64,000 nucleotides of DNA from Patescibacteria group bacterium (GTDB lineage: Bacteria > Patescibacteriota > Patescibacteriia > 2-12-FULL-57-11). Under the pieces are notes generated by a model. It saw only the letters and a list, made by a program, of their open reading frames with translations, ran no database searches and was not told the DNA's origin. The stretch's first letter is position 1. Each line of letters opens with the position of its first letter. The translations under genes were made by a program, and so were the position numbers. This document shows positions 18,860 to 42,800 of this stretch, one piece after another. The stretch spans positions 316,594 to 380,593 of the forward strand of contig SCUL01000002.1 of assembly GCA_004297205.1 (NCBI GenBank), written 5' to 3'.

Positions 18860-18987
18860 GAAAAAACCTCGCATAGAGCGAGGTTTTTTCTGCGTAAACA
18901 AAACACTGACGTAGTACTCCTCTTGACGAAGGTATGGGGTGACGGCAGATCAGGTTAAGATGCAGGATCTGGGGAAATCCCTTATCA

Positions 18988-20665: not shown

Positions 20666-21129
20666 AAGGCCAGCTCGCGAGGCTCGCAAAGAAGGGTAGA
20701 AAGAAGAGGGGCGTCGTTCGTCGTGATCTTCTTTCTCGCAAAGAGAGAAGTTTACGGATGTCCAAGATCCGCAGCAGGGACACCAACTTCGAGAAACTCG
20801 TCATCCCTGCGCTGCGAAAAGCTGGCGTGCGGTTCCGAACCCACTACCGGGGAATTATCGGCACACCAGATATTGTTAACACAAAAAAGAAAGTCGCGAT
20901 CTTCCTAGACAGCGACTTTTGGCACGGTTGGCGGTATCCCGCCTGGAAGAACAACCTCTCGAAATCCTGGAGTAAGAAGATTCTGCAGAACAGACTTAGA
21001 GACCGACGTGTAACTCGTCGTCTAAGGTCCAGCGGCTGGAAGGTGATCAGGGTATGGGAGCATCAACTCGCAACCGACTACGCTGAGACTCTAAGAGATC
21101 TGAAACGAATTCTTGGAACGATAAGCTGA
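20662..21129 (+). CDS. vsr: Very-short-patch repair endonuclease Vsr.
   Basis: MSKIRSRDTNFEKLVIPALRKAGVRFR...PDIV...KKVAIFLDSDFWHGW is a Vsr signature. The true start is probably the internal Met at about 20758. Confidence 0.8.
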   Translation: MKGQLARLAKKGRKKRGVVRRDLLSRKERSLRMSKIRSRDTNFEKLVIPALRKAGVRFRTHYRGIIGTPDIVNTKKKVAIFLDSDFWHGWRYPAWKNNLSKSWSKKILQNRLRDRRVTRRLRSSGWKVIRVWEHQLATDYAETLRDLKRILGTIS

Positions 21130-21153
21130 ACCCTTCCGGCCCCGCCAGAAAAA
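21128..21153 (+). repeat. Direct repeat (about 25 bp) of the tRNA-Asp 3' end (cccttc(c)ggccccgccagaaaaa). Candidate attR of an island integrated at tRNA-Asp.
   Basis: Matches 18839-18865 with 1 indel and 1 mismatch. Lies immediately after the vsr stop. Confidence 0.55.
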
Positions 21154-21274
21154 GCGCTCGTCCTTGCGACGGGCGCTTTTTCTTTTTTTGACCCTCTTCC
21201 GGCCGGCCGGATGTCCGTATTCGTATGATGCCGTTTCGTGGCATATACTTCAGCAGTCGCTGACTAATCAATAA

Positions 21275-21463
21275 TTGATGCTCATTATGAAACAATTTCT
21301 CCTGTACTTTGTTCTCGAATTCATCATCATTTTTGTCGTCGGGTCTGCGGGGTACCTGGTATTACAAGTCCCCTTGAATCTCCCTCAAATTCTTATCTCC
21401 TCTATTACTGCTGGCGCAGTTATCGCTTTTGCTCAGCAAAAGTTGCTGAAGCGCAATGGATAA
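21275..21463 (+). CDS. Possible small two-TM membrane protein (62 aa).
   Basis: AT-rich ORF with two hydrophobic helices, overlapping the tag start. Weak. Confidence 0.3.
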   Translation: MMLIMKQFLLYFVLEFIIIFVVGSAGYLVLQVPLNLPQILISSITAGAVIAFAQQKLLKRNG

Positions 21464-22016
21464 GCCCCGCTGCCCATGGCCTGCCACAGACCCGCTCATG
21501 ATCGCCTACCACGACACGGAGTGGGGCGTGCCGGTGCATGACGGTCAGAAGATCTACGAGTTCCTGGTGCTGGAAACGTTCCAGGCCGGGCTTTCTTGGC
21601 GCACCGTGCTCCACAAACGGGAAAACTTCCGGAAGGCCTTTCACGGCTTCGATGTGGCAAAGGTCGCCCGCATGGACGCCCGCGCCACGCAGAGCCTGCT
21701 CGGTGACGCCGGCATCATCCGCAACCGTCAAAAGATCGCCGCGGCGGTGAACAACGCCCAACGCTTCCTGGAAGTTCAAAAAGAGTTCGGCACGTTTTCC
21801 AAGTACATGTGGACCTGGGTCGGTGGCAAAGCCGTACGCCACGCCTTCAAAACACCCGGCGAGTGTCCGGTGACCACGGACGAGGCTGTTGTGTGGTCGA
21901 AGGATCTCAAGAAGCGCGGCTTCTCATTTCTCGGCCCGACCGTTGTCTACGCGCACATGCAAGCCGTGGGCATGGTGAATGATCACTTGGTGAGCTGCTT
22001 TCGATATGCGCGTTGA
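21456..22016 (+). CDS. tag: DNA-3-methyladenine glycosylase I.
   Basis: CPWPATDPLMIAYHDTEWGVPVHDGQKIYEFLVLETFQAGLSWRTVL...RNRQKI is the Tag family. Terminator ccgcatcagttggtgcgg plus ttttt downstream. Confidence 0.85.
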   Translation: MDKPRCPWPATDPLMIAYHDTEWGVPVHDGQKIYEFLVLETFQAGLSWRTVLHKRENFRKAFHGFDVAKVARMDARATQSLLGDAGIIRNRQKIAAAVNNAQRFLEVQKEFGTFSKYMWTWVGGKAVRHAFKTPGECPVTTDEAVVWSKDLKKRGFSFLGPTVVYAHMQAVGMVNDHLVSCFRYAR

Positions 22017-22456
22017 CCGAACTTTTAATCCGTACGACTCCGCCAAAAAACAGCTCCGCATCAGTTGGTGCGGTTTTTATAGTTATCAACAAACACCCGC
22101 GTTGACAGCTTCGCAAAAACGAGCGTAGCCTTGAAGATGATGAGGCCACGCCCCAACCGAACAACCGGCGGACTGAGGTCTCGATAGGCTGCACTAAGCA
22201 GTCGGTGGCGCTGTCGAACCATCTAAAGAATTTCGTTCGCTTTTATGGCAAAAACAAAGACTTCGACCTACGGAAAGCAACACCAGAAGATCGTTCCCGT
22301 CCGTGGGTACAAGAGGGACGGTAAGAGGATTAAACCTCACCGCCGTTCCACCCCTAACTAATAATTGTAGTTAGGACGTTGACTGCGACCTCCTGTGTAC
22401 GACAGACACACCGGGTCCAAAAAAGCCGCCTCACGCGAGGCGACTTTTTGGACACT

Positions 22457-23212
22457 CTACCTGTTTACACTAAGCTGACAGCCATTTGTTTCTTCTCCAG
22501 TTGTGGGATTCCAACATTTATAAGCAAGTGTGACATTCTCAACCAGCCCCCTTCTGTCCGTAGTCGATAGCGCGATATTGAATGTTACATGGCTGTTTAC
22601 ATTCAAAAGCTTTGACCAATCAGCGATCCTGTAATCCTTCGCTGAAGGATCGAACGGCAGTCCCGGTAGGTAGGAAATCGATTCAAGAGGCAGTAGCGCT
22701 TCCGTGTACTTATCATTGCTACTTGCAAGTATTCCTCTGCCCAGGAGGATGTGACCGCCAAACTCGTGAGGATTCACATAAACACTCTCGTATTTCTGAT
22801 CAAGGGGATGTCCGCTCCGGCTAGCCCGAATGTACAAATATCCGCAAGCCACATCATCCTTTCCTCCAATCTGTACCACCAACTTCACACTTCCAACAAA
22901 CTCGCCGCCTTCGCCGTGGCTAGCGAGATTGTCCGCGAGCTTGAGTGACTGTCCGCGTTTCACCAGATCCTCATATTCAGGAAAGGTCTTGTCGCAAGAG
23001 GGCGGTGCGACAACAACCCTCTCTTCCTTCACCACCTCTCTTACGACTTCTCTAATCTTCCCTTCTTCGGGCGTTGAGACAAACTTCAAAATTGAAGTTG
23101 AGACGACAACAAATAAAACACCAATTACAACGACTGCCAGTAACTGGCCCAACACTTTAAGGAATTTGTTGTCGTCTTTTCCCATAGGAAATGGTTGTAT
23201 ATACCACCACAA
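22457..23212 (-). CDS. Hypothetical membrane-anchored protein (low GC).
   Basis: ORF with N-terminal TM LLAVVVIGVLFVVV. Bidirectional terminator at 22411-22445. Confidence 0.4.
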   Translation of the reverse strand: MWWYIQPFPMGKDDNKFLKVLGQLLAVVVIGVLFVVVSTSILKFVSTPEEGKIREVVREVVKEERVVVAPPSCDKTFPEYEDLVKRGQSLKLADNLASHGEGGEFVGSVKLVVQIGGKDDVACGYLYIRASRSGHPLDQKYESVYVNPHEFGGHILLGRGILASSNDKYTEALLPLESISYLPGLPFDPSAKDYRIADWSKLLNVNSHVTFNIALSTTDRRGLVENVTLAYKCWNPTTGEETNGCQLSVNR

Positions 23213-23546
23213 TTATCAGCAGTAGGGCTGTCATCGAAATCACTAAATAATGTAAGAACGGGGGCCAACCAGCGAGATCATCGAGTAGACTTGCCTGAAC
23301 TTTCAAAATTGAAACGAAACCAGAAAGGATGATGAAGAAAAAAACCATCACTACACCGAAGACGACTGCAGTCAATCCCACATTTGATGAGGGGGAAAGA
23401 ACGGTCACAAGCATGCCAAACCAGCTAAGAAAGCAGGCAGCTGAGACAGCCGCCACAAGCTTTTTCTTCCCCACCCTCATCAACCTTACGTAAGTCGACG
23501 GGATGACCATCTTGAGAACTTTTCTGACCATCGTCAAGGAGTCCAC
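23157..23546 (-). CDS. Hypothetical small membrane protein (3-4 TM helices).
   Basis: Hydrophobic ORF. The start is uncertain because it overlaps the downstream gene. Confidence 0.35.
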   Translation of the reverse strand: MDSLTMVRKVLKMVIPSTYVRLMRVGKKKLVAAVSAACFLSWFGMLVTVLSPSSNVGLTAVVFGVVMVFFFIILSGFVSILKVQASLLDDLAGWPPFLHYLVISMTALLLIIVVVYTTISYGKRRQQIP

Positions 23547-23558
23547 TATTACTCAGTT

Positions 23559-23936
23559 TCACGAGTGCAACGCGATCCGATTCCCCTCCGTGTCCATGAC
23601 CACCGCCATAAACCCATGCTCCGGTGAAATCTGCTTTTTCGGCATCAGCACTTTGCCGCCGGCGGGTTCGACGCGGGCGATCGTGGCATCGATGTCGGGC
23701 GCCGTGAAGTAGATGAGGACGCCGTCCTGGGATGGCTTGTAGAAGTCGGGATGCCGGACGAGCGAACCCATCGCCCCGGTTGCATCCGGTTTGGACGACG
23801 AGAACCACGCCATCTCGAGCGGCCCCAGCTGCTGACGCTGCAATTTCATACCAAGCACCGCCTCGTAGAACACAGTGGCCCGATCCATGTCCGTGACCGG
23901 AATCTCGAACCACCCGACGGGATTGAAGTCAGCCAT
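23559..23936 (-). CDS. VOC/glyoxalase-family protein.
   Basis: GWFEIPVTDMDRATVFYEAVLG ... GGKVLMP...HGFMAVVMDTEGNRIALHS is a typical glyoxalase/bleomycin-resistance fold. Confidence 0.6.
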   Translation of the reverse strand: MADFNPVGWFEIPVTDMDRATVFYEAVLGMKLQRQQLGPLEMAWFSSSKPDATGAMGSLVRHPDFYKPSQDGVLIYFTAPDIDATIARVEPAGGKVLMPKKQISPEHGFMAVVMDTEGNRIALHS

Positions 23937-27667: not shown

Positions 27668-29005
27668 TTACATCATCTTCTTGCGAATGAACGCCGGGAT
27701 TTCCAAATCTTCTTCGTCCGAGGCGTCGGCACCCTTGCCGGTGAAGACGGTGCGCTCCTCGACCAGCTTCTTGGAGCTGAACTGGCGCTCTTCCTGCTGG
27801 GTCTCCGGTTCCGGTTCTCCGCCTGAGGCGGATCCGCCTCCGGCGGAGGGCTTGGGCGGCGGCGTAGGCGGCATCGGCTGGGGCTGCGGCGCCTGCTGCT
27901 GGAAACGGGCGGCTGCGGCCGTAAACATGCCGGAGGCGCGGGGTTCGACGCGCGGCGGCTCCGGGGCGATGTCTTTGGCCTTCATGAAGGTGGTCGGCGC
28001 GTAGGTGCCGCCGGCGATGCCGGCTTTGAGGCTCGGGGTGGGCGCCTTGGCCTTTTCTTCAAAACCGGTCGCGATGACCGTGATGCGCACGTCTTCTTTG
28101 AGCGAGTCGTCGATGACGGCGCCGAAAATGACTTTGGCGCCCGGATCGGCCGAGCCGGTGATGATCTTCGCGGCCTCGGAGACTTCGTGCATGCCCATGC
28201 TCGGGCCGCCGGTGATCATGAAGAGGATGCCGCGCGCACCCTCGATGGACACTTCAAGAAGCGGCGAGGCGACGGCGGCTTTGGCGGCGTCCACGGCGCG
28301 GTTCTCCCCGCTGCCGTGCCCGATGCCCATGAGCGCCGTGCCCTGGCTCGACATGATGGCTTTCACGTCGGCGAAGTCGACGTTGATGATGCCGGGAACC
28401 GTGATCAATTCGGAAATGCCCTGCACGCCCTGGCGCAGCACGTCATCGACGATCTGGAAGGCGTCCAAAAGCGACGTCTTCTTGTCGATGATCTGCAGCA
28501 CCCGGTCGTTGGGGATGGTGATGATGGTGTCGACGCGCTCGGCCAGGTCCGCGTAGGCCTGCTCCGCGATCTCCCTGCGCTGCGCGCCCTCGAAGGCGAA
28601 CGGCTTGGTGACGACGGCGACGGTCAACGCGCCCAGGTCGCGGGCGATCTCCGCCACGAACGGGCCGGCGCCGGAACCGGTACCGCCGCCCATGCCGCAG
28701 GTGATGAAGACCATGTCCGCGCCTTTGAGGAGCTCGCGGATTTCGTTCTGGCTTTCTTCGGCGGCCTTGCGCCCGAGTTCCGGATCCATGCCGGCGCCGA
28801 GCCCGCGCGTCACGGTTTTGCCGATGTGCAGCTTCACCGGCGCGTGGTTGTAGTGGAGCGCCTGCACGTCCGTGTTGATCGCCACAAATTCCACGCCTTT
28901 GATTTTGGAGGCGATCATGCGGTTGACCGCGCTGCCGCCGGAGCCGCCAACGCCAACCACTTTGATCTTGGCGAATGTTTCGATGTCCGGTTTCACTTCA
29001 GGCAT
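27668..29005 (-). CDS. ftsZ: Cell division GTPase FtsZ.
   Basis: KIKVVGVGGSGGSAVNRM, GGGTGSGAGP, NVDFADV. Start is probably MPEVKPD. Confidence 0.9.
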   Translation of the reverse strand: MPEVKPDIETFAKIKVVGVGGSGGSAVNRMIASKIKGVEFVAINTDVQALHYNHAPVKLHIGKTVTRGLGAGMDPELGRKAAEESQNEIRELLKGADMVFITCGMGGGTGSGAGPFVAEIARDLGALTVAVVTKPFAFEGAQRREIAEQAYADLAERVDTIITIPNDRVLQIIDKKTSLLDAFQIVDDVLRQGVQGISELITVPGIINVDFADVKAIMSSQGTALMGIGHGSGENRAVDAAKAAVASPLLEVSIEGARGILFMITGGPSMGMHEVSEAAKIITGSADPGAKVIFGAVIDDSLKEDVRITVIATGFEEKAKAPTPSLKAGIAGGTYAPTTFMKAKDIAPEPPRVEPRASGMFTAAAARFQQQAPQPQPMPPTPPPKPSAGGGSASGGEPEPETQQEERQFSSKKLVEERTVFTGKGADASDEEDLEIPAFIRKKMM

Positions 29006-29120
29006 ACCGCAGCGCACGATGATTGAACACGATTTGTGTTCGATTTTCGTCTCTTTTCAGCGGAATTTCCTCCCGACGCCCATACTGTACGAGCGTCGGC
29101 AAGACAACGTCAAGCGATGG

Positions 29121-30377
29121 TCAAGGCAGCAGATGCCCGAACCACTTTTTCATGGATTTGGTGAGCGTGGAAACGGCCGCGACATTGCCCATCATCTTCC
29201 CGAAGCCCTTTGTTTTCCGGCTTTCCTGGAAGTGCGACCCCCAGGAGACGAGGCCGATGGCCGTGGAGAAGGCCAGGTCGTTGACGCGGTCGGTGATGGA
29301 GGTGACGCCGATCGGCAGTCCCATCTGGATCGGCAACCGGAGCTTGCGCTTGGCGACTTCGACGACGCCCGGGAGCTTGGCTCCCCCGCCGGTCAGGATG
29401 ATGCCGGCCGGGAGCAGGCCGCTCCTGCCCACGCGCTTCAGTTCCTTGTCGACTTTCTCGAAAATTTCCTCGGCCCGGGCCTCGATGATCTCGGCCACGT
29501 ACTTGCGGCTGACGGTTTCACTCTCCGCGGCGCCGAATTCCTTGATGTCGACGTCGTCGCGCCGCCCGACTTCCTTGGGGACAGCCGTGCCGTAGCGGAT
29601 CTTAAGCGCTTCGGCGATGTCGATGGAGGTCCGCAGGCCGATGGCGATGTCCGAGGTGACGTGTTCCGAGCCGATCGGCAGCACGATGGTGTGCAGCACG
29701 TCGCCTTCTTCAAAGACGATGACGCTGGTGGTGGAGCCGCCGATGTTGACGACGGCCACGCCGAGCTCTTTCTGGCGCGGCGTGACGACGGCTTCGGCCG
29801 TGGCCAGCACGGACAGCACCAGGTCCTCGATTTCGAGGCCGGTGCGGTAGACGCACTTGGTGATGTTCTTGATCTGGCTCGTGAGCCCCTGGACGATCTC
29901 GGCGTCGACTTCGAGCCGGATGCCGCTCATGCCGACCGGATCCTTGATGCCGGTCTGGCCGTCGACCGTGAAACTCTTGGGAATGACGTGCAAAATCTCG
30001 TAATTGGCGGGGCTGGCCACGGTCCGGGCCGCTTCAATGGCGCGCTCGGCGTCTTCCTCCCGGATTTCGCCGTCCGGGCGGGACACGCCCACCACGCCCT
30101 TGGAGGTCTGGGACAGCACGTGGCTGCCGGAAATACCCACCCAGACGCGTTCAATTTCAAAACCGACCATCCGCTCGGCGCGCTCCAAACAGGCCGAAAC
30201 GGAAGAAACGGCGTCCTCGATGGACGTCACGACGCCTTTGTTGATGCCTTCGGCCGGCACTTCGGCGGCACCGATGATGTGCAGCCCGGCCTTGGCGCCC
30301 TCTGCGGCGCGCTGGCCGACCGCGATCCTGACCGCGGTGGAGCCGATATCGAGTCCGGTGATGAAGTTCTCGGCCAT
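29121..30377 (-). CDS. ftsA: Cell division protein FtsA.
   Basis: MAENFITGLDIGSTAVRIAV..., an actin-like ATPase, upstream of ftsZ. The N-terminal extension in the ORF track is Arg-rich junk. Confidence 0.85.
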   Translation of the reverse strand: MAENFITGLDIGSTAVRIAVGQRAAEGAKAGLHIIGAAEVPAEGINKGVVTSIEDAVSSVSACLERAERMVGFEIERVWVGISGSHVLSQTSKGVVGVSRPDGEIREEDAERAIEAARTVASPANYEILHVIPKSFTVDGQTGIKDPVGMSGIRLEVDAEIVQGLTSQIKNITKCVYRTGLEIEDLVLSVLATAEAVVTPRQKELGVAVVNIGGSTTSVIVFEEGDVLHTIVLPIGSEHVTSDIAIGLRTSIDIAEALKIRYGTAVPKEVGRRDDVDIKEFGAAESETVSRKYVAEIIEARAEEIFEKVDKELKRVGRSGLLPAGIILTGGGAKLPGVVEVAKRKLRLPIQMGLPIGVTSITDRVNDLAFSTAIGLVSWGSHFQESRKTKGFGKMMGNVAAVSTLTKSMKKWFGHLLP

Positions 30378-30382
30378 AGGGG

Positions 30383-30754
30383 CTACCCGCGGAGGGCGAT
30401 CTGCAGGTACGGCACGAAAATGATGAGTCCGACGGCGGCTGCGCCGAGCGCAGCCACGAGCACGGCGCCGGCCATGGCGTTCTTGACCACTTCGACCTGC
30501 GTCGAGAGGCGCGGCTTGAACAAATCGACCATGTGCTCCACGGCGCTGTTGAGCAATTCTAGCACGAGCACGAACGTCCCAACAAGCAGCACGACGACCA
30601 TTTCCTGGGTCCGAATCCTGAGCCACAGACCGAGGAGCACGGCCGCGACCGCGAGCGCGATCTGGATGCGGAAACTGTGCTCCGTCCGGGCCACGAAGGC
30701 AATCCCCCGGCCGGCATAGGACAGGCTTTTCCCCAACGTCTTCAGCGAGAACAT
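30383..30754 (-). CDS. dgkA: Diacylglycerol / undecaprenol kinase (DgkA family).
   Basis: 3-TM protein with the ELLNSAVEHMVD motif. Confidence 0.75.
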   Translation of the reverse strand: MFSLKTLGKSLSYAGRGIAFVARTEHSFRIQIALAVAAVLLGLWLRIRTQEMVVVLLVGTFVLVLELLNSAVEHMVDLFKPRLSTQVEVVKNAMAGAVLVAALGAAAVGLIIFVPYLQIALRG

Positions 30755-31185
30755 AGGCGGGAAACCAGGGATTCCTGAAGGCGGAACATGCGGCGCGCGT
30801 CCGCAGGCTTCACATGATCATGCCCGGCGCAATGCAGCAAGCCGTGCACGAGCACGTCGAACAATTCGTGTTGGAGCGTGATGTCGAGCTGTGCCGCGTC
30901 GCGCTTGGCGTAGGGCAACGAGATAACCACGTCGCCGAAAAAATGCGGCGCGCCCGGAGCAGGAAACGTCCCCTCCCCCGGGAAGGACAGCACATCCGTG
31001 GTCGCGTCCATTTTGCGCGTGCGCTTGTTCAGCGCGCGCATGGCGGCGTCGCCCACGAAGGTCACGGAGACGGCTTGCGGTGCGCGGCGCTTGAGCGCGC
31101 GCATCACCGCATCGACCGCACGGCGAACATCGCGGTCCGACAACCCTCCCCGCGCACGACGTACGATCTCCACCGCGTGCGGCAT
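30742..31185 (-). CDS. ybeY: Endoribonuclease YbeY.
   Basis: HGLLHCAGHDH metal-binding motif. Confidence 0.85.
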   Translation of the reverse strand: MPHAVEIVRRARGGLSDRDVRRAVDAVMRALKRRAPQAVSVTFVGDAAMRALNKRTRKMDATTDVLSFPGEGTFPAPGAPHFFGDVVISLPYAKRDAAQLDITLQHELFDVLVHGLLHCAGHDHVKPADARRMFRLQESLVSRLCSR

Positions 31186-31190: not shown

Positions 31191-32300
31191 CTACGGGGTC
31201 GACGTCGCCGTCGAGGTCGGCGCGGTCGGAGCAGGCGCGGCGGGCGCGGCCACGGCGCGCAGCGAGTTCGCCATCATCTCGTAGGTGCGGCGGAAGGCGG
31301 CCTCAGAGCGGCCGCCGAGCGTGTACGCGAGCACCAGGACGCGGCCCGGCGCGATCGCCACATAGCTCGTGAAGCCGTCCGGGCTGCGCACGCCGGACAG
31401 GCCCGAGCGCGTCGTAAAGGGCTGGATTTGGGAGCGCGGAACGCCGGGCGAACGTTCCAGGTACCACTCGGTCAACGGCAGGTTGTCGACATTGTCCTCG
31501 AGCAGCACCTGCACGAACTCGCCGCTCGCGGCGATCCAAGCCACGGACTGGCTCTCGGGATCAATGACGTTGCGGCGCCAGGCCACGGGCGCGAGCAGGC
31601 TGTAGCCGGGTTCGGTGAACAGCATCACGGACGAGGTGGCCGCGATGAGTTCCGCCCGGGCGCCCGCCGCCGGATCGTACAGGTTGAAAACTTCGGCGCC
31701 GTCGAGGAAGCCGTCGTCGTCGGTGTCCGGACGGTTGGGGTTGGCGCGGTAGAGCAGCTCCTCGAGGTCGGTCAACCCGTCCACGTCGCTGTCGGCGGCC
31801 AGGCGCACCGGGCCGGTCGGCGCCGGGGCGTTGACGTTGGCGTTCTGGTTGGTGTTGGCCGGCGTGCTTGTGGTCACGGCCGGGGTGGAAGTCGTGACGG
31901 CCGGGGTTGAGGTGGCCGGCGCGTTCACGTTGGCGTTGGCATTGCGGTTGACGTTCACGTTCGCCGGACGGTTGGCGTTCACGTTGGCCGGACGGTTGAT
32001 GTTGGCATTGGCAAGCGGCGCGGGCGCGGACGGGGCGCGGCCAAAGAACCACCAGCCGGCAAAGCCGAGGCCTCCCAAGACGACCAGACCGACCACGATG
32101 AACAGCCAGAGCGGCGGCCGAGCGGCTCTGGCCGGGGCCTCGATCGGACTGCGCGGCACGGCGGCCTGCGCGGCGGGACTGAGCGGCGCTTCCTTCCCCG
32201 GCACATATGCCAAAGCCGCGCCGAGGTAGCGCTCGGGCATGGTGACGATCCGCTCTTCCGGATCGACGCTCGGCAGCGGGGGGAGCTTGGGCTCAGCCAT
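31191..32300 (-). CDS. Single-pass membrane protein. Asn/Val/Ala-rich low-complexity linker, TSP3-like Ca-binding repeats, C-terminal about 170-aa domain.
   Basis: TM LWLFIVVGLVVLGGLGFAGWWFF. Linker NANINRPANVNANRPANVNVNRNANANVNAP. Motif DSDVDGLTDLEE...DTDDDGFLDGAEVFNLYDPAAG. Confidence 0.55.
   Translation of the reverse strand: MAEPKLPPLPSVDPEERIVTMPERYLGAALAYVPGKEAPLSPAAQAAVPRSPIEAPARAARPPLWLFIVVGLVVLGGLGFAGWWFFGRAPSAPAPLANANINRPANVNANRPANVNVNRNANANVNAPATSTPAVTTSTPAVTTSTPANTNQNANVNAPAPTGPVRLAADSDVDGLTDLEELLYRANPNRPDTDDDGFLDGAEVFNLYDPAAGARAELIAATSSVMLFTEPGYSLLAPVAWRRNVIDPESQSVAWIAASGEFVQVLLEDNVDNLPLTEWYLERSPGVPRSQIQPFTTRSGLSGVRSPDGFTSYVAIAPGRVLVLAYTLGGRSEAAFRRTYEMMANSLRAVAAPAAPAPTAPTSTATSTP
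31814..32012. repeat. Low-complexity tandem DNA repeats (gttggcgttcacgtt-like units) encoding the (N-A/V-N) linker, plus a duplicated TSTPAVT unit.
   Basis: Read directly in the DNA. A similar tract occurs at 32564-32729 in the adjacent paralog. Confidence 0.5.
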
Positions 32301-32303
32301 GGA

Positions 32304-33044
32304 TCATGGAGAAACCGTCGTGGTCGACGAGCCCGGGGTGGGCGGCAGGAGACGGCCGGGACCGTTGGGGTCGTAGCCGTTCCTGACTTCGGCGCCGTCC
32401 AGGTAGGTGTCGCCGTCGGTGTCGGCGTTCAACGGATTGGTGCGATAGACGCGCACTTCATCCCAGTCGGACAGCTCGTCGCCGTCGGTGTCGGTCTTGG
32501 TGGGGTCGGTCCCGAGACTGCGCTCTTCTGCGTCGGTCAGCCCGTCGCCGTCCGAGTCGATGATGATCGGACCGTTGACGTTGGCATTGGCGTTGGCGTT
32601 GACGTTCGTGTCCGGCGCGTTGACGTTGGCGTTCTGGTTCGCGTTCAGGTTGGCGTTCACTGCCGGAACATTGGCATTCGCCGCCGGCGCGTTGACGTTG
32701 GCCGCCGGCACGTTGGTGTTTGCGACCGGCGTCGAGATGCGGCGCCAAGTCAGATACGCAGCGGTGCCGATCACGCCGACGATGACCACGCCGATGCCGA
32801 CGAACAGCAGGATGCGCTGGTAGCCCATGCCCGGTTCTTCAAGCGCAGCCAGATCCTGCGGCGCGGGAGGGACGGCCGGACGCTGCACGGGCTTGAGCGG
32901 CGAGGGACCTCTCGCCGGGCTCGGCGCGGACGCGTCGGCGCGAGGCGCGGACGGCCCCGTCCCCGGCGGTGCGGCCGACGGTTCGACCTTGTCGAAGATG
33001 TCGTCCACCGGAAGATTATCTGGCGTATTCTCGAACATAGGCAT
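32304..33044 (-). CDS. Single-pass membrane protein. Asn/Val/Ala-rich linker plus three TSP3-like repeats, ending ...NGYDPNGPGRL.
   Basis: TM ILLFVGIGVVIVGVIGTAAYL. Motifs DSDGDGLTDAEE, DTDGDELSDWDE, DTDGDTYLDGAE. Confidence 0.55.
   Translation of the reverse strand: MPMFENTPDNLPVDDIFDKVEPSAAPPGTGPSAPRADASAPSPARGPSPLKPVQRPAVPPAPQDLAALEEPGMGYQRILLFVGIGVVIVGVIGTAAYLTWRRISTPVANTNVPAANVNAPAANANVPAVNANLNANQNANVNAPDTNVNANANANVNGPIIIDSDGDGLTDAEERSLGTDPTKTDTDGDELSDWDEVRVYRTNPLNADTDGDTYLDGAEVRNGYDPNGPGRLLPPTPGSSTTTVSP
32564..32729. repeat. Low-complexity tandem DNA repeats encoding the NANVNAPAANANV... linker.
   Basis: Hexa- and nonanucleotide periodicity (gacgttggc / gttggcgtt) read directly. Confidence 0.5.
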
Positions 33045-33845
33045 TTAGGGAGTGGCCGTCTCGAGCCGGCCCGGACCGAGCGGATTGTAACCGTTCTTCA
33101 CCTCTTCGCCGTCGGAAAAGCCGTCGCCGTCGGTGTCCGCGTTGAGCGGATCCGTCCCCATCTCGATCTCCTGACCGTTGGTCAGGCCGTCGCCGTCCTC
33201 GTCGCCGGAAGCCGGCGGGATGGTCAGCGGTTGCGGCTCTGCCGGCGGGGCGATGTCCGCGAAGAAGGCGTTGCAGTTCACGGCCTGCTCCCCCGAGAGT
33301 TGGGTGCAGCGGTCGGCGCTGGGATATCCGGCGTACACGTCGCCTTCGCAGGCCGCCGCGGCTTCGGCGCCGAGCGCCGCGCAGACGGCCGGGTCTCCTT
33401 GGGCGCGCCCTTGCGCGGTAACGGCGCGCTCCGTGCAGCGGGTGCGGATGCCGTCTTCCCCGATTCTATCACATTGGCTTGGATCCGCCGCGGCTTCGGC
33501 CGCCGCGCCCACGCACAAATCACGCGCCTGAGCGTCGCCGATGTCGCCGCACCGCGCCGCGTCCTTGGCGGCCACGGCTTCGGCGTATCGTTCGGCATCG
33601 CTGCACGCTTCGGCGCTTTCCCGTTCGGCGCAGCCGCGGGACACGGGCACCGGCTCCTCCCCTTCCGGAGCGGGCGTTTCGCCCTCGGGAGCCGATCCGT
33701 TTGACGGTCGGTTCGAGGCGCTCTGGCCGCCCGGCTGTTCGGACGCGGGCGCCGTGGCGCGCATCCGCCAGACGAGCAACCCGCCCACGACAAGAGCCAG
33801 GACGAGCACGCCGGCACCGATGGCGATGATCATGCGTCGCGACAT
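33045..33845 (-). CDS. Single-pass membrane protein with a Cys-rich ectodomain and C-terminal TSP3-like repeats ending ...[11 protein letters not shown].
   Basis: N-terminal [24 protein letters not shown]. Motifs [24 protein letters not shown]. Confidence 0.55.
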
Positions 33846-33848: not shown

Positions 33849-36800
33849 TCAGGGGAAGAATCCGCCGCCAAAACCGCCGCCCGGCACAGGGGAACTGCCC
33901 GACGGAATGCAGCTGTCAGCCACGCAGATGAACCCGGCGCGGCACGAGACCGAGCAGCGGATGAAGCCGCCGCCCGATGCGGACGTCCGGCAGGCAGGAT
34001 AACTGGGTTCAAGCCGGGCGCAGGTGCACGAGCCGCCGGAGACCACGACGTCTTCAAGGTCTGAGCACCCGCCGCCGCCGGTGTCGGGAATCGGACACGG
34101 GCGCGCGTCGAGGCGGCAGCGTCCGTCCACGCAGGTGCGCGCCGGATCGTCGCACGTTCCTCCGCCGGAGCCGCCCGGGGGCGACCCGCCCGGCGGAACA
34201 CCGACGGCACCGCCCTCTTCGTCGACGACGACGCCGTCGCCGTCCGTGGGGTCGGCGGGGGCTGCGGGGCTGCGCGACGGCACGCAGGCGAACCCTCCGG
34301 GAGGAGGAGGCGGCGGGTCGCCGTAGACGAGCGGGCAGGCGTTGAAGCGTACGGCGCTGACCCGGATCTGGACGCCCGCGCCGGCATCAATGCGCAGCGG
34401 CAGAAGCTGCGGCGTGCGGCTGCAAGTGATGCTGCCGAGGGGCACCGTGGCCGAGCGGCGGATCGTGATCGGACCCGTGCTGACGGGAGCCGTCGCGCCG
34501 ACGGGGGGGCCGACGGTGATCGTCCCCGCGACGACGGCGCTCGTGACTGCCGTGCCGATGGCGCTGCCGATGTCGACCGAGGCGTCGAGCGTGGTGGCCA
34601 CGAAACGGTTCGCGGACGGGGCGATCGACTCCATGGCGCGAATGCAGCCGTACCAGTCGTCGATCATCGAAAAACGACCGGCCGCGCACATCTCCTGGAC
34701 GGAGCCGAATTCGCTGAGATACGTCTCGTCTTCCGCCACGCGCAGCGTGAAATTCCGGTACCGGGGGCCGACGGCTCCGACGGGCGTGCTGTGGGTACGC
34801 TCGTGGTTTTCGCAGCCTTCCGGCGCGCAGCTGGAACCGCGGGAGAAGAAATGGTCGTCGGACTGCAAACCGTCGGACACCAGGATGACGATGCGCTGTT
34901 CCGCCCCGTCGGCATCGAGGATGGCCGTGGCGCGCTCCATCGCGGCCTTGCCCGGCGAGACGTCCCTACCGCTTCCCGACGTGATCATGCGCAGCCCCTG
35001 GACGGTGGTCTTCAACTCCTCACGGCCGATGGCGTTCAGAACGACCAATTCCGGTGCGCCGGTCAACGCGGTCAGGGTCCGAACGTTCCCCTCGTACCGG
35101 CTCCCCTGGTAGAGGATCGGTCCCGACGGGTTGGCGTTCAGGCCGCCGAAGGCCAGGATGCCCATCTTCAAGTCGGTCACCGACCCGGGGAACGAATTGT
35201 AAATCTGGTCGATCACGCCGTCGGCGCCGGCAACCACGTTCTTGGCGATGTCGAAGCGGGACGGCGTGCCGCCGGTGCCGTTCGGCAGGAGGCCCATGCT
35301 GCGCGAGACGTCGAACACCAACAGGACCGAGGTCCGGCGGCCGACGGTGCCCACCGGGGTCAGGTCGGCCACAATCTGCATGTCCGTGTCGATCGTCGAC
35401 GCGCCCGTCTGGCAGGCCGGAATCACCAGGTCGTGCGTCACCGCGCCGCTGTCGACGACGGCCTCGCCCAGCGTGCGGTCGGAGATGAAGCCGCCGGGGC
35501 TGTGCGGCTGGAGCCGGATTTCGAGCTGCGAGAACGTCGGCGGGCAGGCCTGGCGGCAGTCGCCGGAGCAGTGCGTGTCGCGCGTCGCTCCTTCCACGCA
35601 GGAGACGTCGTTCGGTTCGCACAGTTCGTACGGCCGTTCGACGACGCCGTTGCCGCAGTAACCGCCGGAGACCGAGATGCCGCGGCAGACGTTGGTGCAG
35701 AAGTTGCAGGAGCGGCCGTAGGCGCAGGAGGCGCGGGCCCGGGCGATCGACGAGGGGTTGGAGGCGTCGATGTTGTCGGCGCCGCTGTCGCACTCTTCGC
35801 CGGCCGGATTGACGATGCGGTCGCCGCAGACGTTGCGCACGCAGGTGTTCAGGCAGCCGTCGTTCTGGTTGCGGTTGCCGTCGTCGCACTCTTCGCCGGC
35901 CTCGCGCTGGACGACGCCGTCGCCGCAGCTCGAAACGACCGAGCAGGCGCTCCAGGCGCCGAAGCCGGTGCAGGCGGCCACGCAGGTGCGGGAGCGACGC
36001 ATTTCGCGGCCGTCCGGATCCGTGCCGCAGACTTCGCTTTCGGTCTGGCCCGGTTCGCAGATTTCCCCGTAAGAGATTTCACCGTCGCCGCAGTACGGAC
36101 CGAAGTTGCGGCAGTCAGGAGCGCAGCTCGCCGCCCGCGAGGCGTTGTAGCGGGTCGTGCCCAAGCAGGCGGACCCGTCGGCGCAGCCGCCGGCGCCGCC
36201 GAAGTTGCACGTCGCGCCGGAGCCTGCGCAGCGTCCGCCGAGATCACAGACTTCCCCGGCCTGGCGGTTGCCGTCGCCGCAGTGCGGGCCCAAGCCCGTG
36301 CAGAGTCCGTTGCAGCGGCCATAGGTGTTGTTCAGCGAGCCGTCGTCGCAGGCCTCGGGCGGCGAAAGAATCCCGTCGCCGCAGCGCGCCGGAGCGCAGC
36401 TGCCGTAGGTCTTGGTGCAGGTGTCGGAGCACGTCCAGCGCATGCCGCCGGCGCCGCCCGCAATCGTGCACGCCTCGACCCCGGTGTCGCCGATTTCGCA
36501 CTGCTCGCCCGGTCCGATCGAGCCGTCGCCGCAGACGCCGTCCGAGGCGCTGAGGAGCCCCTCGTCGGTGGCGCGCGCCTGGCAGACGTCCTGGAGGCGG
36601 AAGACGTTCAGGATGCCGGTTTCCGGATGGCTGACCGGTTCGACCGGATCGGCCCAGTTCAGGACACGGCAGGTGCCGCCCGTACAGTCGGCATCCTGGC
36701 TGCAGAGCCGGTTGGGATCGGTCGAGCAGAAACGCAGTTCGAACTCGGCGCCGAACTCGAAGCCCCGGCCGCGCTTGCGATACTCGTAGATGCGCGATCC

Positions 36801-39800
36801 GGCCGGGCACTGGTAGGTCTGGGCCGAGGCATTCCAGCAGGTTTCCGCCTCGTAGCCTTCGGCCGTCGAACAGGCCGCGCCCTCCGCGCTCGCCGTGTTG
36901 AAGGTATTGAGCGGATCCTGCGGCAGCGCGCCGCCCAGCACGTTGCCCAAACCCGACTGCCAGGACGGCCAGCGGCTCGTGGACAGGCCGCGGATGTAGG
37001 AGCCGGAGGCCAGGGTCGGGTAGCTGCCGATGCAGCGGTCGCCGGCGCCGCAGTCGGCGTCGCGGATGCAGGTCGTTTCCGGCCGGTCTTCGCAGACCGA
37101 GGCCAGACCGTAGGCCGTTTCCATCTTGGCGCCAACTTCGGCCAGGTCCTGGAGGCGCAGCACGTCGCGCGTGAACTTGTCCTTGGGCGCGCGGCAGGTG
37201 CCGCCGACGGCGCCGCACTCGGCGTCCTGCTGGCAGGACAGCGGGCCGCACGTGGCGCCCGTGCCGCAATCGCCGTCCGTGACGCAGGCGCGGCCGGCGT
37301 CGTCGCTGCACACGTTGACCGAGCAGGTGCGGGCGTTGTCCCCGGCCAGGTTGGTGTTGAAACGCAGGTTCTCCATCATCTGCCGGAAAATCGTCTGCGT
37401 CGTCTCGTTGGCGCCCTCGTTGTAGGACATCAAGTAGACGTTGGTGTAGAGCTGCGGATCGCCGAACTTGTTGCCGGCGTTGATGTAGACGCTGCGGCCG
37501 TCCTGCACGGCGTCGTAGCCGTCCACCTCGACCGGCACTGGAGAACCGGTGAAGCCCTGTTTGGCGTACCAACGGGCCGGCTCGTCATGTGCGCGGTTGC
37601 GGAGGATGCGGATGCCGAAGGCATCGCCCGGCTGGCAGAGGTCGGATGCGCCGGTGCACTGCAAGGGCAGGAGCTTGTCGCCAATGATGCCCAAGAGCGC
37701 GGAGCCGGGCGCGGCCCCTGCGCCGATCGAAACCGCTGCGTCGGCGGGCGACGGCAGGTCGTCATGCCGCCCCGCCTCGCCGGCATCGCGGCAGAAATAG
37801 GTCGAGAAGTTGAAATCGTCGTCCGTGAACGGCGTCCAGGTGCCGTCGGCGGCGCGGCTCGGCCAGGGATTCTCGCAGAGCAAAACCGTGGCCAGTGCGC
37901 TGCCCGAGGCGGTTTCTCCGTAGCAGTGGCCGGCCGTGGCCGAACCGGCGGCGGCGCAGCGCCGCCCGCGGCCGCATGCCAGCTCCTGCGCGGTGATGTC
38001 CCCCGTCGGATCGCAGGCCGCGCCGAAGATGTTGGCCGTGACCGTGGCCTGCGCGGTAATGGTGGCCTGGCCGTTCTGCGGCTGGCCGATGGTGCGCAGC
38101 GTCATGGCCTCGCTCGAGGAACTCGGATACGTGAAGTGGATCGGCGCCGGATCGCCGTCGCGGTCGCCGTCGGAGGAAGCCCAATCCCAGACCCAAGAGT
38201 ACGTGGCGACCGGCACGATCGGCACGACGCGGGCGCCGCGGCGCGAGACGCCCTGGGAGCGGAACACCTTGTCGCTGTCGTCGAGTGTGTCGAAGGAGGC
38301 GCCCGGCGCGTCGTCGCGCGGATCGTTTTGGGCGGTCGAGAAGAGCGACGACTGCGGGATCACGCGCACCTGGTCGAGACGGCAGATTTCCGTACCGGTG
38401 GTGAAACTCCAGGAGGCGTCGCCGGACATGGGCACGCCGTCGATCGAACGCACGCCGGTCTTTTCGGCGTCGGTCAGGTCCGGGTCACCCTTCACGAGCA
38501 CGCGGAATTCGGTGCTCGGTGCCAGCGCCTCGCGCGGCGAGACCTGAAGCTCGGTCACGAGTCCGCCGCCGGCCACCGTTTTCTGCAGGTCGGCGATCAG
38601 CACCGTGCTCGAGGAGACGCAGAACCCGGCCACTCCTGCGCCGCGTCCGGCGGCGCAGGGTCCGACCGTGCGCTCCAGGAGCAACACGTTGCCGATGAAG
38701 GAACCGGCGTCCATGCGCATGTTGAACGTCGCCGCCATCAGCGTGTTGCGGCAGACGTCGGCACCCTCCGGCGTGAACGGCGGAACGAGTTGCGGACGCG
38801 GCGCACAGCAGCCGCCGTTGCCGCAGCCGATCGAGCCGGCCCGGGCGCCCGGAGCGAGCGTGGCGCAGTCGTTGTCGACCGTACAGGAGCAGACCATCTG
38901 GAAGCCGGCCGTGCCGGTCACGGTGTCGCCCGCGGCGTTGCGCGTGGCGACGGTCAGGTCGGCGGTGCCGCCGGCCGCGCCGCGCACGTAGCTGTCCGGA
39001 TCCGGACGGCCGTCGGTGGGACCGCCGAATTCGCACTGTTCCCCGGTTTCCACCGGCACGTTCGTGCCGCAGTAGGCGGCCGAGGTGAAGCTGTAGCCGT
39101 AGCGCGGGTTGGAGCCCTCGAGCGTGCAGCGCTCGGAGCAGCCGTCGCCGGCGTCGGGGTTGCCGTCGTCGCAGGATTCGAAACGGGCAGGTTCGAGGAT
39201 GCCGTTGCCGCAGCAACCGGCGGCAGGGCCGCCCGCGCCCGGCGTGCAGGCCGTGCGGTTGCCTTCGGCCAGGCAGCGCTCGGAGCAGCCGTCGCCGCTG
39301 CGGACGTTGCCGTCGTCGCAGACTTCGCCGGATTCGAGCCGCCCGTTGCCGCAGACCGAGAACGGCCCGGGCAGGGTGCCTTCATTGATGCAGGAGGCCG
39401 AACAGCCGTCGCCGGAAGCGGTATTGCCATCGTCGCAATCCTCCCCTTCCCCGACGTCGCCGTTGCCGCAGGTGGCGCCGCCCCCGGCGGAGCCTTCGTG
39501 CGTGCAACGCTCGGTGCAGCCGTCGCCGTTCAGGACGTTGCCATCATCGCAATCCTCGCCGGCGGTACGCGTGCCGTTGCCGCAGGCCGGCGCCGAGGTT
39601 CCTTCGTTCAGACAGACGGCCGAGCAACTGTCGCCACCTGTCGTCCCGCCATCATCGCAATCCTCGCCGCGCTCGGTGCGCCCGTTGCCGCAGACTGAGA
39701 CGGAGCCGACGGAGCCGGTGAGCAAACAGGCGTTGGAGCAGGATTCGCCGCCGGCCAGCGGGAGCAGATCCTTGCCCTCCGTGCCGCTGCCCGGCGTGCT

Positions 39801-42800
39801 GCGGAAATCGACCGTGCCGACGGCGCCGCCGACCGCGGCCGAGACCGCGGCGTTGGCCGAGGTCCAATCCCACGAGTACCGTCCGCCGTCGAGCGGTTGG
39901 CCGCCGGCGTCGCAGTCGTCCGGCAAGCCGCGGGGGATGACGATGTAGTGGGCGACGTCGCCGATGATCTGGACCGAAGCGTTCGGCGGCGAGACGCTGA
40001 CGCTGGCCACGTCGCACAACGCGCTGTCGTCCTTGGTACGGAAGGTCCAGGAATAATCGTCGCCGTAGTTGCCGTCGGCCAGCGGCGCGCCGGAGCGCGA
40101 GCGCACGCCGTCGTCGCCGCCGGAGACGATGACGCGGTACCAGCTGCTGCGGGCGAGCTGCGCGGCGCCGGACGGACGGATCTGGAAACCCGTGGTGCGC
40201 CCGTCGGCGTCGACCGTGCCCTCCACGGAGAAGTCCGGCACGCCGCCCGCCTCGAGGAAGGCGCGGCACGATTCGTTGACGCAGGTGAACAGCCGGACCG
40301 TGCGGGCGTTGATCGTGGCCGGGTCCATGGCCACGTTGAAGGACGCCGCGACGCGGGCGTTGACGCAGGCTGCGGAACACATCGGCGTGTGTTCGCCCAC
40401 GCGCGGATCAAGGTAGTTGATGTCGAGCACGCCGACGTCCGACTTGCCGGCCGCCGGGATTTCCGCGCGGACGTGGACCGGATTGTCGGTTTCGGTTTCG
40501 TTGAGTGCGGTCGCCACGTAGCGGCAGGAATTCGGTTCCACGGGATCAGCCGCGTCGTCGGCCAGCGTGGCGCGCGTCGAGGCGTCGCTGCCATCGGCAA
40601 GTGCGTGGCTCCAGCGCCAGTCGTAGGCCGTGCACATCAGCAGGTTGCAGTTCGCCGCCGTCGGATCGGCGCGATAGTCGACGGCTTCGCCTTCGCCCGT
40701 GGCCGTGAAGACGGCCGGCGAGACTTCGACGTGATCGACGCCGCAGGCCTCGTCGTTCGGCCGGATGCGGTAGGGCCAGACGTAGTCGCCGCCAGGCGCG
40801 TCGTCGCGGTCGCCGTCGAGCGCGATGCCCTCGACGCTGCGGATGCCGACATCCCCCGCCGCGAGCGTGACCCGGTACCAGGTGCTCGAGGCGAAGGCCG
40901 CTTCCGGCGTGAACGTCATGCGGCTCGTGTAACGCGCGGTGGCGCCGACGACGACGGATTCGCGCAGCACTTCGACGCGGCCGCGCAGCGGCGTGCCGGT
41001 GCAGGCGCCGCTGTCGAAGCCGTCGCCCTGGCCGCAGGCCTCGACCGCGACGTTCGTCGGGAAACTGGCCGGGTCCATTTCGGCCGTGAAGCGCGCCGAG
41101 ATGATGGCATTGGCGCAGGCATCGCGGGAACCCCGGTAGGGCGACGGACTCTGCGTGTCGGTTTCACAGGTGGCTTGTTCCACGACGCGCGGCAGCACGG
41201 GGACGTCACCGGTCGAGAAGCGCCACACGAAAGCGCCGGTCGGCGTGCGCACCGTGCAGTCGGCGCGGCAGGAACCGTCCGCGCAGCAGGACGTGCCGGC
41301 GGTGCAGGAGGCGTCGTCGCGGCACTGGCCGACCGTAAACGGTAGGGAGTTGGAAATGACGCCGCCGAGCGCTTCGACCGAGACCGGACCGGTCGCGGCC
41401 GCAAACGGCACGCGGGCGTTCTGGATTTCGGTGTCGGCCCAGGGGCCGTCCACGGTGGAGGCCTGGCCGTCGAAGAAGGTCACCTCGCCCGAGGTGGAGC
41501 CGAAGCGTTCGCCCAGAAGTCGCACGCGGGTGTCGGCCGGACCGTTATCCGGATCGATGGCGCAGAGTCCCGGATGCGGCACGCCGTCGGTCACCGTAAA
41601 ATTCACGGTGTTGGATTGCGCGCCGTCGGCGCGTTCCAGGCGGATGTTGTGGGCGGCCAGGGAAATGGGGGTGCGGCCGCCGGCGTCGCCGCGGTAAAAC
41701 GCCGGCACTTTGACGGTCACGGCGGCGTCGGTCCAATAGCGTTCGGCGCAGATGGCCGGGAAATCGACGGCACCGTCGGCGGTGGTGCCGTCCGGCAGCT
41801 GGAAGAGCACGCGGCCGACGCGCGCGCCGAAGTTGCTGCCGCGCAGGGTCACGTATTCCGACACCGGACCGGAGCTCGGCTCAATGGCCGTGACGTTCGG
41901 CAGCGTCCCCGCCTCCGGCGACAGGGCGCGGAAACTCTTGCGGTTGGATTCGTTCGTGCCCACGCGCACCCGGACCGTCCCGTCCGTTTCCACGGTCACG
42001 GCGAGCGACGGCACGCGGCCGCGGATCTCCGTCGGGGACCAATCGGCGTCGCTGGTGCCGGCAGCCGAATCCCGCCCGCCGACCGCGAACAGCACGCTGC
42101 CATCCGTGCCCGGATCTTCGCCGAAACCGGCACCCGTCAACGTGAAGCCGTCGCCCGTCCGCCCGCTCGACGGCTCGATGCGGCAGATGCCGGGGCGCGT
42201 CGTAGCGTTGACGGTGAAGACGCCGAGCAGGTTGGGACCGCGGGCGTCGTCGGTGTCGTCCTGCTCCCCGCCCGCCGCGGAGACGCGGATCGGGCCGGTC
42301 ACGGCGCCGGCGGGAACCGTCACGGTGATTTCGCGGTCCGTCCGGGCGCCGCCGTCGCACAGCGCCGCGGTCACGTCGTCGTCCGCGCCGGGACCGCCCA
42401 GGAACGTCACCTGGCCGGAGCCGCCGAAGGCGCGGCCGGCGACGGACACCAGCGTGCCCGGGCCGCCGTCCGTGGGCGAGACGCTTTCAATCATCGGCAC
42501 GTCCACGCAGGTACCGCTGCGGCACACCCCGCCCGCGCAGTCTGCCGGGCCGCCGCAGGACCCGCCGCCGCAAGCGCCGCACGAACCGCCGCAGTCGACG
42601 CCGGTTTCGTCGCCGTCCTGGACGCCGCTGCCGCAATGCCGCGGCCGCACGGCCACGGAGACGCCGGATACCGAGACCGAGTTGTCGTCCAAATCAAAGG
42701 CCGTGCCGCCGATCGAGTGGGTGCCCACCGTCACGCCGGTCGTATCCCAATCCACGGTCCCCGTGAAATCCGGAGACAGCGCCGCCGGAACGGTGCGGCC

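Follow-up and report, generated by a model that had tools for sequence, protein, structure and literature searches.

Why should the division genes of a patescibacterium be preceded by a row of genes for membrane proteins with thrombospondin type 3 (TSP3) repeats, set directly behind the gene for a giant surface protein? The question is raised by a stretch of 64,000 nucleotides (positions 316,594 to 380,593 of contig SCUL01000002.1, GenBank assembly GCA_004297205.1), referred to here as the window, in which three co-directional open reading frames (ORFs) occupy positions 31191-33845 on the minus strand. We call their products A, B and C. A first-pass annotation had described them as three tandem paralogs inside the string ybeY-dgkA-ftsA-ftsZ and had proposed a Ca-dependent envelope or septum-associated surface layer; its observation is partly confirmed by the analysis reported here, and its interpretation partly supported. 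The three frames, their common strand and their single transmembrane (TM) segments stand, but their place is upstream of the string, between ybeY and the gene for a 3300-residue protein. We conclude from sequence comparisons that A, B and C represent three distinct single-pass membrane-protein families with a common TSP3 module, in which B and C form an ancient, obligate orthologous pair, not recent duplicates, and A is a lineage-restricted third member.

The TSP3 module is the feature that the three proteins share. The pattern D-x-D-x-D-x-hydrophobic-x-[DN]-x-x-[EDK] has nine matches in the six-frame translation of the window, all of them in A (two), B (three), C (two) and a fourth ORF at 13388-15604, and none in 200 block shuffles. 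TSP3 motifs had been claimed for all three proteins; the pattern bears this out, as does the Pfam family TSP3_bac for A (E=9.5e-15, 54.6 bits) and B (E=2.4e-13, 50.1 bits), but C (E=0.0089, 16.3 bits) falls under the Pfam cut-off of 25 bits. The motifs of the form ...GY(N/D)PxGPGRL, including NLYDPAAGARAEL, which had been taken for near-identical C-terminal sequences, are present in the trio, but in C the motif is internal, and it is merely the tail of the last TSP3 repeat. It is nevertheless conserved across relatives, in an alignment of 62 C sequences and in families drawn from a wide database, and is not generic low complexity; in the ectodomain alignment of the C family, residues D2, D4, D6, E13, D24, D32 and E35 are invariant. 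Binding of Ca2+ by the repeats is predicted from this motif conservation.

The same motif had also been noticed in the Ig-repeat protein encoded at 13388-15604 (minus strand), outside the A-B-C cluster, and is indeed found there, as ...NGYNPLGAGLL. This fourth TSP3 protein comprises about five immunoglobulin-like (Ig-like; Big_7) repeats, two TSP3 repeats and a C-terminal domain of ~170 residues (LIKLACPAGADSFHACKAVYYYGRDGKRHAFPS...) that has no Pfam match, and in BLASTP it aligns with A, B and C over 30-38 residues only, all within the TSP3 module. Such an architecture implies that the TSP3 pair serves to join extracellular domains that are unrelated to one another.

Among A, B and C themselves, BLASTP aligns 57 residues for A with B, 124 for B with C and 81 for A with C, all of them in the TSP3 and linker region. 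The likeness of B to C comprises the TSP3 module together with a low-complexity linker, and that of the other pairs the TSP3 module only. The description of the trio as tandem paralogs is therefore misleading. Full-length tandem paralogy is contradicted, both by the confinement of the BLASTP alignments to the TSP3 and linker parts and by the separate orthologous families to which the three proteins belong.

Each of A, B and C has one hydrophobic TM segment. Basic residues are enriched ahead of this segment in both of the larger families: lysine plus arginine per 15 residues amounts to 3.6 before the TM segment versus 1.7 after it in C (excess before in 103 members, after in 5) and to 2.8 versus 1.4 in B (excess before in 39, after in 3). 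By the positive-inside rule, an N-in/C-out (type-II) topology is therefore predicted, with the TSP3 repeats outside the cytoplasmic membrane, as the first-pass annotation had assumed. Its suggestion of a short cytoplasmic N-terminus applies to A, with 5 residues ahead of the TM segment, but not to B (~77 residues) or C (~63 residues), and the linker rich in Asn, Val and Ala that it derived from tandem DNA repeats is real in B and C but absent from A, where a Cys-rich helical domain takes its place.

Protein C (369 residues; 31191-32300, minus strand) is the most elaborate of the three. Its cytoplasmic tail, with the peptide IVTMPERY (32220-32252), is followed by the TM segment (32043-32111), an Asn/Thr/Pro-rich stalk (31827-32012) coded in part by a period-24 tandem DNA repeat (31923-32003), two TSP3 repeats (31647-31793) and a C-terminal domain (31251-31652). 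The protein extends ~150 residues beyond the repeats, ~135 of them in this globular domain. Within the otherwise variable cytoplasmic tails of the family, the motif [IV]-x-x-M-P-x-x-[FY] is strongly conserved (I/V in 58 of 58 sequences, M in 55 of 59, P in 59 of 59, F/Y in 52 of 59). The stalks have a median length of 85 residues and a range of 45-244. Seven members of the family carry a 4-Cys module, which in the loci L007 and L034 is located in the stalk.

What is the C-terminal domain of C? Taken alone, the domain of the window protein has no Pfam match at E<=1. Of the 64 orthologues examined, 36 match Pfam PsbP (best E=3.6e-6) and 14 match PsbP_2, and the profile of the C family matches CyanoP, the cyanobacterial PsbP (2xb3), with E=8e-4. 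An AlphaFold2 (AF2) model built with 14 sequences has an overall predicted local distance difference test (pLDDT) score of 83.5, with 89-96 for the blocks of the domain. A Foldseek search with this domain places PsbP chains at the top (E=1.5e-5 to 8.7e-4, probability 1.0); at E<=1e-3 there are 15 PDB matches, namely BT_1490 and 14 chains of PsbP or PsbP-like proteins. The target-normalised TM-score reaches 0.57, at a sequence identity of 10-16%, and Tsi3 and the Eag chaperone SciW are also matched. We conclude from the model that the C-terminal domain is PsbP-like, an alpha-beta-alpha sandwich superposable on PsbP, and that it adopts the fold of the PsbP/CyanoP/PsbP_2/DUF1795-type (Eag, Tsi3) superfamily (PF01789, PF18933). 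It is not PsbP proper: there is no photosystem gene among the annotated genes of the window, which comes from a genome of the Patescibacteria metagenome-assembled genome (MAG) type. The domain also differs from PsbP in being tethered to the membrane through a TM segment, a stalk and TSP3 repeats.

The C family is large. When the profile of its C-terminal domain was scored against 1.84 billion representative proteins (clusters at 50% identity), 1,591 matched at E<=1e-3, and 1,255 of these clusters reached E<=1e-10. Among the 150 matches listed, most proteins have 290-460 residues, with a few fragments and one of 602 residues; almost all of them carry the domain at the C-terminal end or close to it, and exactly one TM segment is found in each of the 138 listed matches that look full-length. 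The names given to these proteins in their source databases are uninformative ('hypothetical protein', once 'EF-hand domain-containing').

Protein B (246 residues; 32304-33044, minus strand) has a cytoplasmic tail with the peptide PVDDIF (32985-33011), a TM segment (32745-32813) and an Asn/Ala/Val low-complexity stalk (32571-32720), the linker being coded by tandem DNA repeats of periods 21, 12 and 6 at 32573-32730. Three TSP3 repeats (32349-32558), ending in ...NGYDPNGPGRL, complete it. The family consensus and the gene call in locus L001 suggest that translation truly begins at M3, at 33038. Members of the B family start with MF-x-D..., carry the motif [PV]-[ED]-D-[IM]-F-A within their first 20-45 residues (D in 46 of 49 aligned sequences, I/M in 46 of 50, F in 41 of 50) and continue with a Pro-rich tail, one TM segment, a stalk with a median of 56 residues, three TSP3 repeats and the ending GYNPxGxG(K/R)L. 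This architecture is found in 74 of 107 TSP3 matches from the wide database, and 62 of the 74 carry the motif. Over the B and C families together, the stalks range from 36 to 244 residues and are variable in composition, rich in E, T, S, A, P and N.

Protein A (266 residues; 33045-33845, minus strand) is built differently, with an N-terminal signal-anchor TM segment (33768-33830), a Pro/Glu/Gly-rich segment, the Cys-rich helical domain (~33207-33641) and two TSP3 repeats (33063-33203). There is no Asn-rich linker, and no tandem DNA repeat in the gene. The Cys-rich domain has 11 Cys residues that are invariant over 8 homologues; searches of Pfam and the PDB gave no match for it, and an AF2 model from the single sequence consists of helices only, with a pLDDT of 50. 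A-type genes occur in about 7 loci only, with other TSP3 proteins sometimes filling the same slot.

How constant is the position of these genes? With FtsA as the probe, 80 loci were retrieved, one genome per GTDB species, at FtsA identities down to 52%, and annotated by phmmer and motif scans; the lineages named in the records are Uhr-, Falkow-, Kuenen-, Magasanik- or Buchananbacteria or 'Patescibacteria group'. The FtsA of the window shares 97% identity with the FtsA of a Patescibacteria MAG and 73% with one from a Candidatus Uhrbacteria MAG, which places the window in a high-GC genome of the candidate phyla radiation (CPR) related to Uhrbacteria. A C-type gene is present in 62 of the 80 loci; in 10 others the upstream DNA is too short to judge, and 8 with at least 4 kb of upstream DNA have none. 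The recurrent order is giant gene, (A), B, C, ybeY, dgkA, ftsA, ftsZ. C stands directly before ybeY in 51 of the 62, so that its adjacency to the division genes, claimed from the window, proves widespread; with gene starts estimated from the longest ORFs, the gap from C to ybeY has a median of 3 nt over these 51 loci and is at most 20 nt in 46. A B-type gene, with a TM segment and three TSP3 repeats, lies directly ahead of C in 56 loci, and the adjacency of B and C is kept in all loci examined except L072. In that locus, from an uhrbacterium, two tandem C-type genes (399 and 444 residues; 6658-9199) are found and no B-type gene is in the usual place.

The genes between C and ftsA are less constant. 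The dgkA gene is missing in L089 and L090, and both ybeY and dgkA are missing in L088, where C abuts ftsA, as it also does in L011. About 10 GTDB loci and 5 additional contigs have other genes between C and ftsA, namely clpP, secD, secF, one for a Wzy_C/TPR protein, in some cases glycosyltransferase genes, and one for a prepilin peptidase; in the GTDB loci of this kind clpP follows C on the opposite strand and ftsA lies 7-8 kb downstream. Loci chosen through FtsA cannot reveal B or C genes that lie away from ftsA, and contexts were therefore also looked up through the B and C proteins. In all 9 informative contigs obtained in this way ftsA is found within 10 kb downstream on the same strand, and pilin-anchored or giant proteins are encoded upstream in at least 6 of the 9.

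Some further genes appear in particular branches. A Falkowbacteria-type subclade (L082-L086; also L063, 924-1277) has a conserved protein of 103-117 residues encoded ahead of B, with a TM helix in the L063 copy, and in L082-L086 an ORF of 63-66 residues lies between B and C; in L083, for example, the two are at 9627-9938 and 10752-10952. Neither protein has a Pfam match or an equivalent in the window. In all 5 inspected loci without C, type IV pilus genes occur upstream of ftsA. In L025, L028, L044 and L081, from related lineages without B-C near ftsA, the genes directly upstream of ftsA seem by N-terminal sequence to be of this kind, for PilT- and PilC-like proteins, pilins and a prepilin peptidase. 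The Falkowbacteria-type loci likewise have a prepilin peptidase gene immediately ahead of ftsA, and ftsA is thus found repeatedly beside genes for surface filaments in this group.

On the other side of the trio in the window stands the gene for the giant protein of 3300 residues (33849-43751, minus strand). Pfam matches describe an N-terminal membrane domain of the T4SS-pilin (VirB2-like) type, a Gly-rich linker, Ig-like, TIG and Big_5 domains, and many Cys-rich repeats, of the families DUF4215 (three stretches) and myxo_disulf_rpt; NCBIfam reports TIGR02232 (E=1.2e-44, seven stretches) and again a pilin-like match. One nucleotide upstream of the giant gene lies that of a 613-residue T4SS_pilin protein with Big_5 (43753-45594, minus strand; Pfam and NCBIfam), probably the first gene of the surface-protein block after yqeY. 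A homologue precedes the giant gene in L039, L049, L055-L061, L082, L085, L086 and L089. In nearly all loci with sequence there, a Cys-rich giant ORF, usually cut by the edge of the locus, is found directly upstream of (A)-B-C, and the linkage to giant or pilin-like proteins extends to the subclade in which C is apart from ftsA. Near the C-terminal third of the giant protein of the window, residues ~2850-3000 (VLLVFDVSRSMG...) resemble by eye a von Willebrand A (VWA) domain with its metal ion-dependent adhesion site (MIDAS) motif; Pfam reports no VWA domain in the protein at E<=0.001.

The genes of the window are tightly packed. From the 613-residue protein through the giant protein, A, B, C, ybeY and dgkA to ftsA, the successive gaps are 1, 3, 0, 3, 5, -13 and 8 nt. 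All are on the minus strand: ybeY (30742-31185; Pfam YbeY, E=9.7e-30), whose longest ORF starts 5 nt past the stop of C; dgkA (30383-30754; Pfam DAGK_prokar, E=6.8e-27), which overlaps ybeY by 13 nt; ftsA (29121-30374; 418 residues from MAENF..., Pfam FtsA and SHS2_FTSA), which starts 8 nt past the dgkA stop, in agreement with the gene call in L001; and ftsZ (27668-29017), 103 nt further on. A scan for sigma-70-like promoters over 26.5-46 kb found no site between the 613-residue gene and ftsA, its single match (29084-29113) lying inside the ftsA-ftsZ gap; terminator-like matches in the same scan were no more frequent than in shuffled sequence. The tiny intergenic gaps, which are the basis for this view, suggest that the block may be co-transcribed with the division genes.

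What, then, might these proteins do? The reading that we prefer, tentatively and at slightly less than an even chance, is that they build a Ca-stiffened scaffold outside the cytoplasm for the giant surface protein, and that this scaffold has its tails on a conserved cytoplasmic partner and is co-expressed with the division genes. A, B and C would hold their Ca2+-binding TSP3 modules outside the cytoplasmic membrane as type-II single-pass proteins, in B and C at the end of a disordered stalk and in A with the Cys-rich helical domain in place of the stalk. C would also display its PsbP-like domain, presumably protein-binding, at the stalk end. The scaffold could then anchor, space or organise the giant Cys-rich protein with its VirB2-like anchor, perhaps in a complex with B and C. 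Inside the cell, the motifs [PV][ED]D[IM]F of B and [IV]xxMPxx[FY] of C would dock it to a conserved partner; it is the strong conservation of these cytoplasmic motifs that speaks for a specific partner. Transcription of the block together with ybeY-dgkA-ftsA(-ftsZ) would couple its production to division.

A precedent for such an arrangement is found in Myxococcus, where the Cys-rich stalk receptor TraA and its operonic TSP3 partner TraB form a 1:1 complex (PMC12045341). In both systems a surface protein with a TIGR02232 Cys-rich stalk (at least seven repeats in the giant protein) is encoded beside a TSP3 partner. There are clear differences, however. TraB forms a beta-barrel in the outer membrane of a diderm and includes an OmpA domain, whereas B and C are single-pass proteins of the cytoplasmic membrane in a monoderm; and the giant protein is anchored by a VirB2-like T4SS_pilin domain, not by a MYXO-CTERM tag. 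No OmpA or barrel match was obtained for A, B or C, nor any homology outside the repeats. For a Cys-rich stalk protein with a TSP3 partner, TraA/TraB is the closest functional precedent, through a resemblance that is compositional, not homologous.

Several points weigh against the scaffold. The TraAB parallel is one of composition only, with neither a beta-barrel nor an OmpA domain in B and C. Gene adjacency cannot separate a role for the giant protein from one for FtsA or FtsZ, both links being near-universal in the loci seen, and in one subclade the giant gene is separated from B by genes for another large protein (960-1660 residues) and a small one (103-111 residues). The PsbP-like fold serves many functions and names no ligand, and the binding of Ca2+ is predicted from motif conservation only.

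Could B and C instead be parts of the division machinery? FtsN, ZipA and PilN are bitopic proteins that dock on FtsA, FtsZ or PilM, and FtsA is an actin-like ATPase related to PilM; it is the INLLP peptide of PilN that binds PilM. By analogy, B and C might be lineage-specific divisome components whose tails bind FtsA or FtsZ and whose ectodomains reach the wall or a surface layer, coupling the Z-ring to remodelling of the septal envelope, a reading that we consider less likely than the scaffold, though a serious rival to it. The layout, with a short conserved N-terminal peptide, a TM segment, a disordered linker and a globular C-terminal end, resembles that of FtsN, ZipA and PilN, B and C are encoded beside ftsA, and the I-x-x-M-P of C recalls INLLP. 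The motifs in the tails of both B and C are conserved. Genomic position also favours a tie to division, whether in the 51 of 62 loci where C directly precedes ybeY-dgkA-ftsA-ftsZ (median gap 3 nt), in L011 and L088, where ybeY and dgkA are missing and C abuts ftsA, or in the 9 of 9 informative contexts found through B and C. Yet no SPOR, POTRA/FtsQ or ZipA_C domain was detected in A, B or C (Pfam and NCBIfam, E<=0.01), nor a PilN-type ferredoxin-like domain; the genes from clpP to prepilin peptidase separate C from ftsA in the loci and contigs described above; and ybeY and dgkA are unrelated housekeeping genes. The FtsA of the window itself ends in ...TKSMKKWFGHLLP, which looks by eye like an amphipathic helix and which we take to correspond to the membrane-targeting helix of other FtsA proteins; FtsA may therefore need no separate tether.

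The position of the block between yqeY and ybeY, in the window as in L019, is a further argument against the divisome role and introduces the next alternative. In Firmicutes, yqeY and ybeY belong to one conserved housekeeping string (rpsU-yqeY...phoH...ybeY-dgkA...era), so that the proximity to division genes may partly reflect inherited order; an ancient insertion of the surface-protein block into the rpsU-yqeY...ybeY string is suggested. The proteins would then be general envelope or surface proteins, such as stalks that space the wall or surface layer, or adhesins, with no specific tie to the giant protein or to division, their gene order being ancestral synteny frozen in small, slowly rearranging genomes. 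We hold this to be a little less probable than the divisome role. The block is embedded in the series hisS, rpsU, yqeY, [block], ybeY, dgkA, ftsA, ftsZ, nrdR, htrA, pyk, with identical flanks in L019 (rpsU and yqeY at 1566-2292, preceded by hisS), L091 and L092, and TSP3 modules occur on unrelated proteins, not only that at 13388-15604 but many others in Patescibacteria. Against mere freezing, the order is kept down to ~52% FtsA identity, with frames that overlap or nearly abut, B and C part company in L072 alone among the loci examined, and the strong conservation of the cytoplasmic motifs argues for a specific intracellular partner.

A bolder combination of these ideas, which we regard as doubtful, would make B and C the proteins that couple division to the envelope in this branch, with tails docked on FtsA, as PilN is on PilM, or on FtsZ, and with Ca-stiffened stalks that tie the Z-ring to the giant VirB2-anchored protein. 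If true, division and the placement of a host-contact or surface apparatus would be mechanically linked in ultra-small cells. Recent tandem duplication of a single low-complexity, fast-evolving gene without conserved function, to which the common TSP3 module and the similar Asn-rich, tandem-repeat-coded linkers of B and C might point, is most improbable, given that the likeness is limited to 57-124 aligned residues of TSP3 and linker and that orthologues with family-specific domains and motifs are found for each of A, B and C across dozens of species.

Several of the components were already known, namely TSP3_bac repeats, the PsbP-like fold and the VirB2-like pilins of Patescibacteria. Acidic repeats of the form D-x-D-x-D-G-x-x-D-x-x-E are shared with bacterial TSP3 proteins (PF18884, TSP3_bac), among them CglD and MtsD of Myxococcus, which give the best NCBIfam matches of the trio, to their TSP3 regions only and with 46 bits against a cut-off of 400. 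Unlike CglD and MtsD, the proteins of the trio are predicted to be small membrane proteins of type II with a cytoplasmic motif at the N-terminus, and no other Pfam domain was matched in them. VirB2-like pilins of Patescibacteria are described as occurring in tandem arrays (Quinonero-Coronel et al. 2025, PMC12102498), and the 613-residue and 3300-residue proteins likewise begin with T4SS_pilin (PF18895) and occur in tandem. They differ from those pilins in that 500-3200 residues of extracellular Ig-like and Cys-rich domains are joined to the pilin-like part, and in that their genes lie beside ftsA, not virB4; a term search of the study returned no mention of ftsA, thrombospondin or giant proteins. 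Our literature searches brought up no account of C-type proteins with their combination of TM segment, stalk, TSP3 repeats and PsbP-like domain, of B-type proteins and their motif, or of the giant-(A)-B-C-(ybeY-dgkA)-ftsA-ftsZ string. Patescibacteria account for a large part of the diversity of bacteria, and very little is established about how they build their envelopes or divide. Two large families left unnamed by the source databases are now defined, with a fixed architecture and conserved cytoplasmic motifs, and their near-invariant place between a giant surface protein and ftsA-ftsZ makes them candidates for lineage-specific envelope or division factors. The short peptides and the domains of B and C are open to direct testing without a culture.

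Finally, some other features of the window may be recorded. Ahead of the surface-protein block lie hisS (46330-47793), rpsU, for ribosomal protein S21 (46083-46382), and yqeY (45630-46073), all on the minus strand, as are all the genes considered above; ftsZ is followed by nrdR and then by genes for an HtrA-like protease and pyruvate kinase (pyk). The GC content is 63-71% except in an island at 18782-23913, where it falls to 0.50-0.53 (versus 0.63-0.71 elsewhere), directly after tRNA-Asp (18782-18859). The island encodes a C5 DNA methylase, an Eco29kI-type restriction endonuclease, a Vsr mismatch endonuclease and a methyladenine glycosylase, together with two minus-strand ORFs that have no Pfam match, and looks like a horizontally acquired type II restriction-modification island at a tRNA gene. 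A tmRNA gene that ARAGORN did not report lies at 8447-8829 on the plus strand, as a full-length match to Rfam RF00023 with 94.9 bits.

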